Shown: positions 46,039-64,000, counted from the stretch's first letter. The stretch: DNA of 64,000 nucleotides from a virus (IMGVR_UViG_3300022719_000284:90827-154826); one strand, 5' to 3'. Notes: a model not told the origin generated them from the letters alone. A program made the numbers and translations.

Positions 46039-49000
46039 TTATGCTCCTGTACCGTGTATAATGCGCCAACGATCAGTAGTAGTATCGTACCACAAAGTAG
46101 CGCTTTCGTTCGGGGAGAGAGTATAATCTGCACCTGTAGGCGAAATAATACGATTTGCAGCGCTAGAACTAGCATTTTGATGTTGAAGGACAATATCATT
46201 CGTTGACCCGATATTGATGATATAAAAAAGTTGTCCATTAACATCAGAGGAATCCAGAGCGGGGGCCAAAAATCCTGTAATGTTTCTATTCCCTGCGCCC
46301 CCGTCCAAGCGAACTACTGCACGTTGATCTGCGTCGGATGTGGTTGCATCATCAACAGCATCATAGTTATTCTGATTACCTGCGATGACTTGGTTTATAG
46401 CTGGAAGAGCTAAACCATGAAAAACAACTGTTTGTCCACCCCCGAAAAGACTGGGAGCAGCTTTAGTAGTAGATCTACCTTGAGCAAAAATTGTCCAATG
46501 TTGAGAAAGAGACCGCTCTGTCTCGCTATACAAAGCTGCTGCCCTAGTAGTTACATCATTAAGAGGTGCTTCATAATAAAAACCGTAATGGCTATTTTGT
46601 ATAAAAGTTCCCCCAGATGCTCCTCCAATGGAAGCTACAAATCTCCTAGCCCTAAAACCATAGACATCACCTATATCTAGAGTCGATCCAGATGGGAAAT
46701 CTCTTCTAATTTGAAAATCGTAACCATATGTTTCGCTTAATGTTAAATTAGCTCCATTTGTATTAAGATCTGAATCATATATCGGATTAAAATTAATGCC
46801 CTTAACAGGTTCTGAAACTGTCATTGTCCCTGAACCATGTTGAACAATAGTGGGTTGAGCATTCAAAATTACAGCTCCCATTGATGTCCCACCACCTCTT
46901 CTAATAGTAGGTCTAGCATCAAACAAAGTAAAAGTACTAAAAAAAGGATTTACTGATTGAGTAAGCACTTGATTATTAGAGATCATTCTAAAAACAAAGC
47001 CAATAGAGTCTACATTCACAGCTCCGTTGTCGAAAATGAAACTTAGCTGACTAGACGATCCAAAGGTTACTGCTTGGCCGTTATACAGACGGGTAAAAAC
47101 GGTAGGGCCTACCGATGCTTGATCGAAAGCATTTATGAATCTAATTTTTCCACTTACAGTAACGTCCCCTCCAGACGAACCAGTCAAAGAGGACCCCTGT
47201 AGGGCTAACTCTTCATTAGCACCAGTGCCCCCAATAATAGTTTGACCACCCGGTCTACCTGACAACAGGGCGTATTGTACGTGGTCGTCATCTGCCAGAC
47301 CTAGTAATAATCCATGATCGGTAGTTCCTGCAGGACCGGTGGGACCCGTTTCTCCAGTGGCACCTGTTAGACCGGTAGACCCAATTAGTCCCGTTTCTCC
47401 GGTAGAACCTGTGGCACCTGTTAGGCCAGTTTGGCCTGTTTCTCCAGTAGCTCCGGTAGCGCCTGAGGAACCAGTGGAACCCGTTAGGCCGGTTTCTCCA
47501 GTGGCACCTGTTTCTCCTGTGGATCCAGTTAAACCAGTAGCGCCTGTTTCTCCTGTGGATCCTATAGTGCCTGTTTCTCCTGTAGAACCCGTCAAACCGG
47601 TAGAACCTGTTTCTCCTGTAGAACCAGTCAAACCGGTAGAACCTGTAGCCCCCGTGGATCCTGTAGATCCTGTAGATCCTGTAGATCCTGTAGATCCTGT
47701 AGATCCTGTAGATCCTGTAGATCCTGTAGATCCTGTAGATCCTGTAGATCCTGTAGATCCTGTAGATCCTGTAGATCCTGTAGATCCTGTAGATCCTGTA
47801 GATCCTGTAGATCCTGTAGAACCTGTAGCCCCCGTGGATCCTGTAGCTCCTGTTTCTCCTGTAGAACCAGTCAAACCAGTAGAACCTGTAGATCCTGTAG
47901 AACCAGTCAAACCAGTAGAACCTGTAGCCCCCGTGGATCCTGTAGCTCCTGTTTCTCCTGTAGAACCCGTCAAACCAGTAGATCCTGTAGATCCTGTAGA
48001 ACCAGTCAAACCAGTAGAACCTGTAGCCCCCGTGGATCCTGTAGAACCCGTCAAACCAGTAGATCCTGTAGAACCCGTCAAACCAGTAGAACCTGTAGCC
48101 CCCGTGGATCCTGTAGAACCAGTCAAACCGGTAGAACCTGTAGATCCTGTTTCTCCTGTAGAACCAGTCAAACCGGTAGAACCTGTTTCTCCTGTAGAAC
48201 CCGTCAAACCGGTAGAACCTGTAGCTCCTGTTTCCCCTGTAGAACCAGTCAAACCGGTAGAACCTGTTTCTCCTGTAGAACCTGTAGCCCCCGTGGATCC
48301 TATAGTGCCTGTTTCTCCTGTAGAACCCGTCAAACCAGTAGATCCTGTAGCTCCTGTAGAACCTGTAGCCCCCGTGGATCCTGTAGTGCCTGTTTCCCCT
48401 GCTTGTCCAATAGGTCCAGTTTCTCCTGTAAGACCTATGGCTCCAGTTTCCCCCGTGGATCCAGTAGCTCCGGTTTCACCGGCACCTGTAACTCCTGTGG
48501 ATCCAGTAGCTCCGGTTTCACCAATTTCACCTTTAATCCCAGTTTCACCAGTTTCTCCAGTAGCTCCAATCCCAGTTGGGCCGATTGGGCCTATATCCCC
48601 TATGGATCCGGTTGGGCCAGTTTCCCCAGTAGCTCCTGTTTCCCCTGCCCCAGTTGCACCTGTAACCCCTATGGATCCGGTTGGGCCAGTTTCCCCAGTA
48701 GCTCCTGTTTCCCCTGCCCCAGTTGCACCTGTAACCCCTGTTGGGCCGATTGGGCCCGTAGCCCCCGTTTCCCCCGTGGCCCCAGTAGCTCCGGTTTCAC
48801 CTGCACCTGTAACGCCGGTAGGCCCATTAAGCCCAGTAGGGCCTGTAGGGCCGGTCTCTCCAGTTTCTCCAACAGTAGCACCGGTGGGACCTGTAACTCC
48901 GGTAGAACCAGTAATTCCCTCAGGACCGGTTGGACCAGTTTCCCCTACCGTGGCCCCAGTTGGGCCAGTTAATCCGGTAGGCCCAGTAGGTGCCCCCGCA

Positions 49001-61040: not shown

Positions 61041-64000
61041 TCATGTTACTATTTCAAGCCTTTCCCACGTTCTCTTCCATTCAGCTATGACTTCAGATTC
61101 CGATAGAGCAACATTATGAACTTTAACTCCAGCAACTATCATATCTCCGGCACCTGCTCCTGTGGGGAAGTTGTTAACAAGAATAACTGCGTTTCCCCCA
61201 CCATCTGGGGTTGTAAGTGTTGAAGACGTTCCAATGAGCACACCATCGAGATACGTTCTCACAACATTTGATTCCCGAGTACATAAAACATGATATGTTT
61301 GATCAACTTCTAATATAGAAGCTCCAATATCGAAAATGCTCTGCCCACCAGAACCGAATTCTTGCGCCCACCTTATTGCGCGACTCTCGTTAGAACCTCG
61401 TATTTCAAGAGCCCATTGCAAGTTGTCAGCTTGTGCCGCAGACGAAAGAACTCCGTAAGCTGCTATTACTCGACCATTTGTACCAAAATTAGAAGCTCTA
61501 AAAATTGCTTGAACTGTTATGTCTCCTGTTATTGCAAGTTTTCCTGCTGCTGGGCCTTCATACCCTTCGGACCCAGTGTCCGCTTGGGCACCTCTAAAGC
61601 GTCGATATCCTTCACGAAGTTGTCCTTCAGTGAAAGAATCACCAGTTGAAAGATCTACAGGGCTAGCAGAAGAATCTGATAAATCACCATCTAGATTCCA
61701 CAAGCCAACAGTATTAGCATCTACCTCAGGATAAGATCCTATCAATCCCCGTACAGACAGATTAGAAACATTACCTGCACCTGTAGGTCCGGCTTCTCCG
61801 GTAGGACCGGTAGGCCCTTCCCCTCCCCCTCCTATTGCACCGGATACCATCTGCCAATTAGATCCATCAGAAACAACAGCAATAGATTGATAATCAGAGT
61901 TTAGGGAGAAGGTTGTAGCTGTTCCTGCAAAACTGGTAATGGTCTGACCACCAGTAGTATCCAATGTAATTGGGCTAGCTGTTGCTACCCCAGCTATATC
62001 CTTGATCCAGTATACTTTCCCTTCCCCAACACCGCTGCTAGTAGCATCTGGGAGAGTTAGAGTAATACCTCCTGATGTTACAAGTAGAACTTCTTGACTC
62101 GGAAGAAGAGTCTGGCTTAGACCTATAGTATCGGTTATAACAGGAGTTTCACCTCCAGTTGGTCCGGTTTCACCTAGTGGTCCAGTAACTCCTGTCGGCC
62201 CTGTTACACCGTCTTCTCCGGCTCCAGTTGCACCATCCTCACCAGTAGGTCCAGTAGGTCCGGGAATACCAGCAGTACCAGTTGGTCCAGTAGCCCCGTC
62301 AGTAGCACCAGTTGGTCCAGTAGTTCCAGTGTTTCCTGGGATACCTTGAGATCCGTCTTGGCCGGTTTCACCTGTGGATCCAGCAGGTCCAGTTGGCCCC
62401 AAAAGGCCAGCAGTACCAGTAGATCCAGTTGGGCCGGTAAACCCAGTTGGGCCAAGTCCCCCAGTGGGACCAGTTGGGGCGCCCGGAGGACCGGCAGGAC
62501 CAGTTGGGCCAGTTTCGCCTGTAAAACCAGTTGGGCCAGTTTCGCCTGTAAAACCAGTTGGACCAGTGGATCCGTCAGTAGGACCGGTTGGACCAGTTAC
62601 TCCAGTCATACCTGTTTCGCCAGTCGAACCAGTATTTCCTTTTACTCCTGTCGATCCAGTTGGGCCTGTAAAACCGAACGGACCGAACGGACCAGTTGGA
62701 CCTGTAAATCCAGTTGGACCAGTTGAGCCAGTTGGGCCCGGGGGACCACCCGAAGGGCCGGTTACGCCTGTCGCCCCAGTTGGGCCTGTGGGCCCAGTAG
62801 ATCCATCAGTAGCACCAGTAGAACCTACTTCTCCTTGTGGTCCAGTTGGGCCGCTTTCTCCGGTTGGTCCAGTAGGAGCGCCCGGAGGCCCGGCAGGACC
62901 GGTTGGGCCAGTTTCTCCGGTAGAACCTGTAATTGATTGTCCAGAAAGACCAACAGGGCCTGTTTCACCTGTCCCACCTGTGTTTCCCTTAGCTCCAGTT
63001 GGTCCAGTGTTGCCTTGGGGGCCAACAGGGCCTTGAATTCCAGTTTCTCCAGTGTTACCCTGAGGACCAGTTGGACCAGTAGCACCATCGGTGGCACCAG
63101 TTGGTCCTGTTTCTCCTTGAGAACCAGTAGATCCTGTTGTACCCGGAGGACCAGCACTACCTACTGACCCTGTAAACCCGGTAGGCCCGGTTCCACCAGT
63201 AGGCCCGGTAACACCTATCCCAGTCCCACCTGTAGCTCCAGTGTTTCCAGTATTACCTGTTCCACCTGTTACACCAGTAGAACCAGTAACTCCCGTTTCA
63301 CCAGTTACCCCAGCGCCTCCCGTAGGTCCGGTGATCCCGGTATTTCCTGTGTTACCCTTCGATCCAGTAGGCCCAGTAGAACCTAGAACCCCCTCTTGGA
63401 GTTCCACTGATAGATATGTAAATGGACTTGCTAATAGATTTAAATTTCCACCTGAATTTTGAGTATGGAATGCTTGAACTACGTCACCAGCATTAAGCTC
63501 CTGTGAGGATTCAACTTGAATATCAGTTGGCTCCCCTCCCAAAATATTTCTAGTATGTTGAGCAATATTGATTCCATTGACTCTAATTTGAATGACTCTT
63601 TTGCCTATAGAATTGGTAGCCCATAAGCCTCCAGCTCTTATGTCGTAAACCCCATCTTCTTGGATTGTAATTTGAGCAGGGGATCCCAAAGTAAAGAACC
63701 CACCTTCATCGAATTGCTCAGTATCAAAGACAGCAGGAGAAGCTACAGATGAACTGAATGTTTGATTTAGAACATTTTTAATCGCTTTAGCGCCACGGAA
63801 TTCAGAGCCAGCAGGACCTGTGGGGCCTGTGGGGCCAACGCTACCTGTTTCCCCAGTAGGTGCTCCTGCTGGACCAGTAGGGCCTGTGGAGCCCTCTTGT
63901 CCTGTAGGACCTGTAGGACCGCCCGGGTCTCCTTGAGGACCGGTTGGGCCGGTTTCCCCTATTCCAGTAGAACCAGTGGCGCCAGTTTGTCCGGTAGGAC
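61041..64000 (-). CDS. collagen-like fibre protein with an interrupting globular module and a C-terminal ConA-like jelly-roll domain; 5' end lies beyond the window
   Basis: The ORF track stops at a TTG at 63689, but the frame is open to nt 64000 and encodes further Gly-X-Y collagen ('[34 protein letters not shown]...'). The main collagen tract is at about 62145..63390, with a second short one at about 61790..61850. The C-terminal roughly 250 aa is lectin/ConA-like. Confidence 0.7.

Follow-up and report, generated by a model that had tools for sequence, protein, structure and literature searches.

The DNA analyzed here, IMGVR_UViG_3300022719_000284:90827-154826 (hereafter the window, 64,000 nucleotides in full), comes from a virus, and its positions 46039 to 64000 carry four genes for collagen-like proteins, designated A to D, three of which share a short sequence motif immediately after their collagen tract. 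A preliminary description, made from the sequence alone, had predicted four giant collagen-like fiber proteins in this region, and this was borne out. Open reading frames (ORFs) for all four are present on the minus strand, and all of them matched the Pfam Collagen family (PF01391) far above its cutoff of 27.2 bits, scoring 273.9 bits for A (E value of 3e-83), 67 for B (1e-18), 66.1 for C (2e-18), and 147.8 for D (7e-44). The reading frame of D is open to base 63998, i.e., to the window end, and D is therefore 5′ truncated, with a length of at least 985 amino acids (aa); upstream of its listed start lie a further collagen tract and a noncollagen insert of ~135 aa. The genes and the copies of the motif are located as follows.

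46039-49614, minus strand: protein A, 1191 aa, with 229 Gly-X-Y triplets in runs of at least 4 (longest uninterrupted run, 128)
47320-49524, minus strand: collagen tract of A, aa 31-765, with Thr at the Y position in 79% of triplets
47272-47319, minus strand: junction motif of A, aa 766-781
56519-58393, minus strand: protein B, 624 aa, with 67 Gly-X-Y triplets in runs of at least 4
57608-57655, minus strand: junction motif of B, aa 247-262
58422-60683, minus strand: protein C, 753 aa, with 66 Gly-X-Y triplets in runs of at least 4
59700-59747, minus strand: junction motif of C, aa 313-328
61041-63689, minus strand: protein D as listed, 882 aa, with 140 Gly-X-Y triplets in runs of at least 4
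61041-64000, minus strand: protein D in its full extent in the window, at least 985 aa, with the 5′ end outside the window

A junction motif shared by three collagen-like proteins

In the six-frame translation of the window, the motif (D/V)H(G/D)xLxGLxDDDHxxY occurs exactly three times, and each copy starts 1 to 8 residues past the last Gly-X-Y run of A, B, or C; protein D does not contain the DDDH motif. When G-L-x-D-D-D-H-x-x-Y was back-translated and searched against the DNA, 3 matches were found in the window versus 0.00 expected from 100 shuffles, confirming that three of the proteins end their Gly-X-Y tract with a nearly identical junction. The three DNA copies differ at synonymous sites, and this indicated that the motif is conserved at the protein level rather than by a recent DNA duplication. 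In a monomer model of the A head predicted by AlphaFold2 (AF2), the junction was unstructured, with a predicted local distance difference test score (pLDDT) of 45 to 58, while the head folds, which fits an element that depends on oligomerization.

The four proteins are built to different layouts around these elements. A consists of an N-terminal PFDTEE peptide, ~234 Gly-X-Y triplets, the junction motif, a beta-helix head, and a C-terminal beta-sandwich. In B, collagen starts at residue 5, there is no N-terminal domain, and the junction motif is followed by a shaft module common with C and by a head. C has a PFDTEE N-terminal domain (aa 1-93), collagen (aa 94-311), the junction motif, shaft repeats that end in GxVGIGTxxP, and a head of the tail-collar or T4 gp12-like type. 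D comprises collagen, a globular insert of ~135 aa, collagen again, a beta domain of ~105 aa, a short collagen tract, and LamG. If triple-helical, the stalks would measure ~200 nm in A, ~60 nm in B, ~70 nm in C, and at least 140 nm in D, and Thr occupies the Y position in 46 to 79% of triplets across the four proteins. The preliminary description had the proteins diverge right after the junction, which holds for the heads but not for B and C as a whole, since these two share 277 aa of post-collagen homology (32% identity, E value of 4e-33); the stretch common to A and C is 62 aa, and that common to A and B is the 20-aa junction only.

A and C also share the peptide P-F-D-T-E-E-x-x-L at their N termini (49525-49614 and 60405-60683, both minus strand), of which the six-frame translation of the window contains no further copy. 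Orthologues of A and C keep it as P[FY][DE][TA]EE, and it may be a common virion-docking element. Within the stalk of A, the (GST/GET/GLT)n part is a long imperfect tandem DNA repeat of 9-bp units (47532-48393, minus strand), with 27- to 99-bp periods, 72 to 80% matches, and ~21 consecutive GST triplets; it is likely a site of stalk-length variation by slippage or recombination.

Three related jumbo-phage contigs of 78, 184, and 267 kb (designated L122 to L124) were retrieved from IMG/VR via a 948-aa glycosyltransferase protein that is encoded inside the cluster (see below); their versions are 69 to 71% identical to it and lie in the same gene order in all three. Their orthologues of A, B, and C have collagen tracts, and most carry a recognizable motif, i.e., TSDHSLLSNLDADDHTQY, VTVHSGLTGLLSDDHTIY, and TTDHGSLLGLTDDDHPQY, so the junction is conserved in homologues, as the preliminary description needed it to be. 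It is dispensable all the same. The motif is degenerate in the L123 orthologue of C, and it is absent from the L124 orthologue of C and from a second collagen protein of that contig (L124_big), where collagen runs directly into VLTDGSTPI, the usual post-motif sequence. The absence from the L124 orthologue of C indicated that the motif is not essential for the transition from collagen to shaft. Several other collagen proteins of L123 have different heads and no motif.

Megablast of 40000-64000 against GenBank phages gave no match, nor did tblastn of the B post-collagen region or of an A-type junction consensus against phages, and protein C has no exact record in public assemblies. The phage lineage is poorly sampled, with no close relative in GenBank.

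Distribution of the motif

A DNA scan of IMG/VR for the degenerate pattern G-L-x-D-D-D-H-x-Q-Y yielded at least 144 occurrences on at least 119 contigs; the pattern carries ~37 bits by our estimate, with 1 to 2 chance matches expected in ~1e11 bases. Among the matches listed, positions that the pattern did not impose were still conserved (D in 128/142, H in 134/142, G in 130/142, and L in 125/142), and the 142 listed sequences gave the extended consensus (V/I)(T/S)DHGxLxGLxDDDHxQY. The same scan over one genome per species found at least 120 contigs of genomes or metagenome-assembled genomes (MAGs). Bacterial carriers were Chloroflexota, Alphaproteobacteria, Gemmatimonadota, Saccharibacteria and other members of the candidate phyla radiation, Planctomycetota, Bdellovibrionota, Bacteroidota, Myxococcota, Cyanobacteria, and Acidobacteriota. 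Archaeal carriers included a Halopelagius isolate and MAGs of Bathyarchaeia, Heimdallarchaeota, Nanoarchaeota, and Altiarchaeales; those listed on the archaeal side are L149, L153, L183, L186, L192, and L203 (a haloarchaeal genome and Asgard, DPANN, and Bathyarchaeia MAGs). The GenBank phage records with the motif number six, three of huge uncultured phages and three of isolates of a Halorubrum tailed virus, and in Halorubrum tailed virus DL1 (L246, OP630574.1 ORF25) the motif resides in a hypothetical protein adjoining a 1135-aa FN3-domain protein. Its presence in an archaeal virus isolate, a haloarchaeal genome, and archaeal MAGs indicated that the motif crosses the divide between bacterial and archaeal viruses.

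At the protein level, a 30-column motif profile was searched against 1.84 billion representative proteins. It matched 12,159 protein clusters at an E value of ≤1e-3, 1,870 at ≤1e-10, and 187 at ≤1e-30, and the motif is widespread and not confined to collagen proteins. In the 908 copies found in the best 150 proteins of the 12,159, both His residues and the Tyr are conserved at 100%, Gly at 95%, Leu at 97%, the three Asp at 82 to 96%, and Gln at 94%. A single protein may contain up to 21 copies, and the copy-to-copy spacing in the best 150 proteins is irregular, at 33 to 127 residues. Neither Pfam nor NCBIfam has a model that matches over the motif, and proteins with 5 to 14 copies are no exception. 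Searches of the PDB with a single motif-bearing segment and with a 49-sequence motif profile gave 0 matches at an E value of ≤10, and a literature search for motif strings returned none, "DDDH" retrieving only papers on digital DNA-DNA hybridization.

What precedes and what follows the motif varies. Collagen precedes it in ~1% of occurrences. Among the matches listed, a Gly-X-Y stretch was present in 1/144 for IMG/VR, and that one is a glycine run and not collagen; for genomes and MAGs it was 1/150 (L188, whose junction is almost identical to that of A); and the motif directly follows collagen in 2/150 of the best-scoring proteins. It also occurs at protein N termini, after Gly linkers, and after coiled coils, as in P0009, where a coiled coil is followed by two copies. 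Downstream, three continuations recur. The first, ALLAGRxGGQxxxGGTxxxxxLxLxxxS, is that of A. The second, xLxDGTRxxTGxLxxGxxxIxNLxxPxxxxDAxNKxYV, matches the end of Pfam Phage_T7_tail (profile positions 121-151) or YadA_stalk, and B (VLVDGSR) and C (IRRDGGG) begin in this way; the third is HNDARGDARYY. In many carriers the post-motif segment thus resembles the end of the T7 gp17 N-terminal domain and the DAxNKxYV of YadA, whereas in B and C it is shortened and runs into a different shaft. To our knowledge, T7 gp17 has no DDDH motif. As judged from these sequences, the motif marks the start of C-terminal fiber modules or the boundary between modules, whatever precedes it.

This distribution bears directly on the role that the preliminary description had assigned to the junction, namely, that of a dedicated collagen trimerization and registration nucleus for the Gly-X-Y helix, followed by interchangeable heads. 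All three copies in the window lie within 1 to 8 residues of the collagen end, the arrangement of collagen and motif is mostly kept in the orthologues of L122, L123, and L124, the unrelated P0073, P0170, and L188 repeat the join G-x-x-G-TTDHG, and collagens generally need a flanking trimerization domain (PMC3368898). However, ~99% of the motif occurrences have no collagen upstream, and the motif is found at protein N termini and in tandem arrays. D and several L123 collagen proteins do without it, and the two L124 proteins join collagen straight to the post-motif sequence. Thus, a collagen-specific nucleus was not borne out; it is largely refuted by the distribution, and we regard it as distinctly improbable.

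The tandem arrays also bear on another reading, in which the motif would be an autoprocessing or chaperone-release site whose Asp and His residues cleave the fiber, comparable to the intramolecular chaperones of tailspikes. Although the His and Asp residues are invariant and the motif sits at a domain boundary, the fiber would be broken up in proteins that have as many as 21 copies, the motif is located at the extreme N terminus of some proteins, and no Peptidase_S74 or similar domain was detected. An autoprocessing site was rejected on account of the arrays, and we consider it scarcely credible. Rather, the motif is a general building-block motif of virus fibers in bacteria and archaea, almost always without collagen, and it is not collagen specific.

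Exchangeable heads, stalks, and neighboring genes

The preliminary description assigned an unknown beta domain, a tail-collar domain, and a ConA-like lectin domain to the C termini of these proteins. The latter two stand, for C and D, respectively; the domain of A is instead tailspike-like, with a beta-helix, according to the model. The terminal modules and the insert of D are as follows.

46042-46317, minus strand: C-terminal beta-sandwich of A, ~aa 1100-1191, pLDDT of ~90, resembling the C-terminal domain of phage depolymerases
58425-58889, minus strand: head of C, Pfam Collar at 79.8 bits (cutoff, 24), with a weak Gp10_C match
61089-61544, minus strand: LamG of D (Laminin_G_3, ConA-like), 48.2 bits (cutoff, 27.6), residues 716-867 of the listed ORF
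63390-63806, minus strand: globular insert of D (SEFRGAK...SVELQ), ~135 aa, between collagen tracts

The AF2 model of the A head, built on 18 homologues, has a mean pLDDT of 67.7, with values of 70 to 86 for the core, which is rich in beta-structure, and ~90 for the C-terminal 90 residues. The predicted structure contains a right-handed parallel beta-helix of the pectate-lyase-like type, at 5 to 12% sequence identity to beta-helix tailspike and depolymerase structures. Its best Foldseek match is 24qj (E value of 0.016 over 92 columns), in the C-terminal sandwich of a tailspike depolymerase from an Acinetobacter phage, and Pfam Phage_depo_C was hit below its cutoff (18.4 bits versus 25, E value of 0.0029), a resemblance only. 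The beta-sandwich is kept in homologues, which end in RWRI, and one homologue, P0012, has a weak precomputed PF25692 match; at 5 to 12% identity, no catalytic site could be assigned in the A head. On the strength of the model, the Foldseek match, and the subthreshold Phage_depo_C hit, A would be a collagen-stalked, tailspike-like protein. It shares the predicted beta-helix and C-terminal beta-sandwich with the tailspikes of HK620 and CBA120, the K5A lyase, and Acinetobacter and Klebsiella depolymerases, which normally have a short N-terminal particle-binding domain in place of the 200-nm collagen stalk of A. Some homologues have the A-type head but no collagen, such as P0012 (43% identity, 99% query coverage); in P0014, P0022, and L070, the motif starts at residues 9 to 24.

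The head of C matched solved tail fibers, both long and short, in the PDB by sequence (8kec, E value of 8.5e-11; 9cuy, 5.9e-6; 1ocy, 1.5e-5), the last of these being the receptor-binding region of T4 gp12. The last ~155 residues of C match Collar and the solved gp12 region and contain SHSH, within MPSHSHG, as a candidate HxH metal site. Unlike C, gp12 has a shaft of beta-structure, no collagen, and no DDDH motif. LamG of D had no sequence relative in the PDB. The globular insert of D shares 78% identity with its L124 counterpart, and Pfam gave no match to it. By eye it resembles a jelly-roll head set in mid-fiber; it also looked C1q- or BclA-like, a candidate that was dropped for want of Pfam support.

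Modules were compared with the related phages after the collagen had been masked. The head of A is 37% identical to the same-locus protein of L124 and 38% identical to residues 1065 to 1487 of the L122 protein at the D locus. In L124 the last ~150 residues of B are replaced. The middle beta domain of D is the C terminus of the D-locus proteins in L122 and L123, and LamG of D has no counterpart in the D-locus proteins of any of the three relatives. These comparisons support an exchange of heads between loci and between related phages, in agreement with the modular stalks and swappable heads of the preliminary description. At the A locus of L123 (16698-22810), three collagen genes follow one another (805, 499, and at least 351 aa), with different heads and no motif. 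A 190-aa gene comes after each of the first two, and the locus stops within the third; the arrangement resembles a duplicated fiber-plus-accessory cassette.

The position of the motif exactly at the boundaries of exchanged modules, and its occurrence before at least three unrelated types of continuation, would also be expected of a recombination linker, a constant cassette boundary that serves head swaps and is structurally inert, a view once taken of the His boxes of T-even tail fibers. Against such a linker, the three window copies differ at most synonymous sites, on which ground a recombination box at the DNA level was rejected; the conservation in Bacteria- and Archaea-associated sequences is at the amino acid level; and the invariance of two His and one Tyr suggests a chemical or structural constraint. 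We therefore deem this explanation very unlikely.

Where on the virion the fibers would sit was also considered. Some, above all A (200 nm) and D with its LamG domain, might be capsid or neck fibers (whiskers or decoration) rather than tail fibers, mediating reversible attachment to surfaces, mucus, or host glycans instead of irreversible receptor binding. Collagen-like fibrils are known to decorate the capsids of giant viruses. The very long stalks, the lectin-like LamG head of D, and the lack of recognizable baseplate genes beside A or D are in line with such a location, whereas the gp12-type tail-collar head of C, the tailspike architecture of the A head, and the match of the post-motif segment in relatives to the end of the T7 tail-fiber N-terminal domain point to the tail. 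We judge a nontail location to be unlikely.

In their overall design, the proteins belong to known types (EPclA, BclA, gp12, and tailspikes), and collagen stalks with exchangeable heads are known. The collagen-like side-tail proteins EPclA and EPclB of Escherichia coli O157:H7 prophages have trimerization domains (Ghosh et al. 2012; PMC3368898). Like A to D, they are phage encoded and combine an N-terminal phage-fiber domain, Gly-X-Y repeats, a flanking module, and a C-terminal globular domain in modular paralogues, of which a genome has several; they are trimeric, as is predicted for A to D. They use, however, a PCoil coiled coil and PfC, and neither these domains nor any coiled coil was found in A to D. 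The latter also have much longer stalks, of up to 234 triplets, and carry a beta-helix, a tail-collar domain, and LamG as heads.

BclA and BclA3 resemble the proteins of the cluster in that a Gly-X-Thr-rich collagen is encoded together with a glycosyltransferase. O-glycosylation of Thr is established for BclA3, in which SgtA glycosylates Thr in the GPT repeats (PMC7157674). That system belongs to spores, whereas here it is a phage, and the enzyme is a fusion of a methyltransferase, GT2, tetratricopeptide repeats (TPR), and GT9; no BclA_C or C1q match was found by Pfam in A to D or in the globular insert of D. Bacterial collagens commonly prefer Thr at the Y position (31.6% across all bacteria and 48.3% in Gram-positive bacteria; PMC8968730). 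The unusual Thr richness reported in the preliminary description consequently holds for A, which at 79% is the only extreme case among the four; the others fall within the usual bacterial preference.

The enzyme and the two small proteins encoded between the fiber genes are located as follows.

53075-55921, minus strand: methyltransferase, GT2, TPR, and GT9 protein, 948 aa, inside the fiber cluster and syntenic in the three relatives
55948-56490, minus strand: 180-aa protein directly downstream of B, kept in relatives, with no family match
60683-61015, minus strand: 110-aa protein between D and C, with no family match

The 948-aa protein is composed of an S-adenosylmethionine-dependent methyltransferase domain, GT2, TPR repeats, and a heptosyltransferase-like GT9. 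Gly-X-Thr repeats and a glycosyltransferase gene are found together in this cluster, as in the BclA type, and by analogy the protein is a plausible candidate for a fiber glycosyltransferase acting on the Gly-X-Thr stalks. The 180-aa protein is possibly an assembly factor, to go by its position.

Several further genes of the window deserve mention. A 187-aa gene (49614-50177, minus strand) overlaps the start of A and matches Pfam Acb1 (41 bits; cutoff, 27), an anti-CBASS 2H phosphoesterase family (CBASS, cyclic-oligonucleotide-based antiphage signaling system), as well as 2_5_RNA_ligase2. Each of the three related contigs has a homologue in the corresponding position, and the gene is likely, from these family matches, an antidefense gene within the fiber cluster. 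A fifth protein (10316-13885, plus strand; 1189 aa) has a short collagen tract at aa 1094-1120 near its C terminus; the ~65-aa domain that follows matches PHROG "virion structural protein" families, and the remainder is unmatched. The PHROG matches of A to D themselves were mostly driven by the collagen repeat and gave little functional information.

At 15927-18947 (plus strand) lies a family A DNA polymerase with an N-terminal uracil-DNA-glycosylase-superfamily domain, a 3′–5′ exonuclease, and a polymerase domain, a fusion only ~26% identical to jumbo-phage polymerases, and an HNH homing-endonuclease-like ORF is found between unmatched genes at 33733-34191 (minus strand). For a 1043-aa protein (40597-43728, minus strand), a single GenBank phage record gave a match: Virus Rctr197k, one of whose hypothetical proteins is 31% identical to the C-terminal third. 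This virus has a 197-kb genome from a methane-oxidizing enrichment culture, with all genes annotated as hypothetical.

A candidate node of trimeric viral fibers

We consider it probable, with considerable room for error, that the region is a fiber gene cluster of an uncultivated jumbo phage and that its fibers make use of the motif as a node. Each protein would most likely be a homotrimeric virion fiber assembled from exchangeable parts. The first is a short N-terminal attachment element, the PFDTEE peptide in A and C and none in B; the second is a Thr-rich Gly-X-Y collagen stalk, whose length differs greatly among the proteins; and the third is a C-terminal receptor-binding module, drawn from a pool that appears to circulate widely among viruses without collagen. 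The tips would be a beta-helix and beta-sandwich in A, different ends on a common beta shaft in B and C, and a lectin-like LamG in D. The motif, (V/T)-D-H-G-x-L-x-G-L-x-D-D-D-H-x-Q-Y, would be a portable node placed wherever one trimeric fiber segment hands over to the next; for the collagen proteins, a side effect would be that the triple helix is held in register at its C-terminal end. The GT2/GT9 enzyme of the cluster would glycosylate the Gly-X-Thr stalks, as SgtA does for BclA3.

As for the chemistry of the node, we envisage a compact arrangement on the three-fold axis of the trimer, made up of the Asp triplet, the Tyr, and the two invariant His and possibly binding a metal. Both the invariance of these residues across bacterial and archaeal viruses and the failure of the monomer model to give the motif a structure make a chemical constraint more likely than a packing constraint. 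Such a node would serve all three chains as a point of reference, in the way proposed for buried metal sites: HxH metal sites lie on the three-fold axis of T4 gp37 and gp12, P2 gpV, and R-pyocin and were put forward as reference points for trimer folding (PMC6116203). The His boxes and the motif are alike in being short, strictly conserved His motifs that punctuate variable trimeric fibers. They differ in that the motif spans 16 to 20 residues, has two His 20 residues apart, and includes an Asp triplet and a Tyr; it does not have the HxH pattern, and the likeness to these metal sites is therefore one of analogy and not of membership. By this analogy, a role of the motif as a trimer reference point in general is plausible. 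The fuller proposal is that the motif is a hitherto undescribed, ancient node of trimeric viral fibers, a clasp that binds a metal or an ion on the three-fold axis and sets the chain register where modules meet. We offer it tentatively, as a possibility that we would not call likely.

Several points weigh against this interpretation. Two L124 proteins pass from collagen into the usual post-motif sequence without the motif, and the HxH metal site already described is a different one. The model of the A head is of moderate confidence only, and that of the B post-collagen region (9-sequence alignment; pLDDT of 39.7) was unusable, leaving the B tip without a fold assignment. The large ORFs near the cluster showed no capsid, portal, sheath, or baseplate match. 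The virion location, trimerization, and metal binding of A to D and of the motif are predictions only.

Taken together, the gene cluster adds members to known designs and no new principle, and the motif is its distinctive element. Apparently unannotated, it is present in thousands of fiber proteins of uncultivated bacterial and archaeal viruses and is nearly absent from the records of cultured phages. The cluster further offers a phage-encoded candidate pair for collagen glycosylation, namely, Gly-X-Thr stalks of up to ~200 nm and a multidomain glycosyltransferase. If the motif is a node of the kind proposed, it would be compatible with collagen, coiled-coil, and beta neighbors and could explain how unrelated segments are spliced while the trimer register is kept. 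A node that sets the register would then serve as a landmark for module boundaries in receptor-binding proteins and as a splice point for chimeric fibers.

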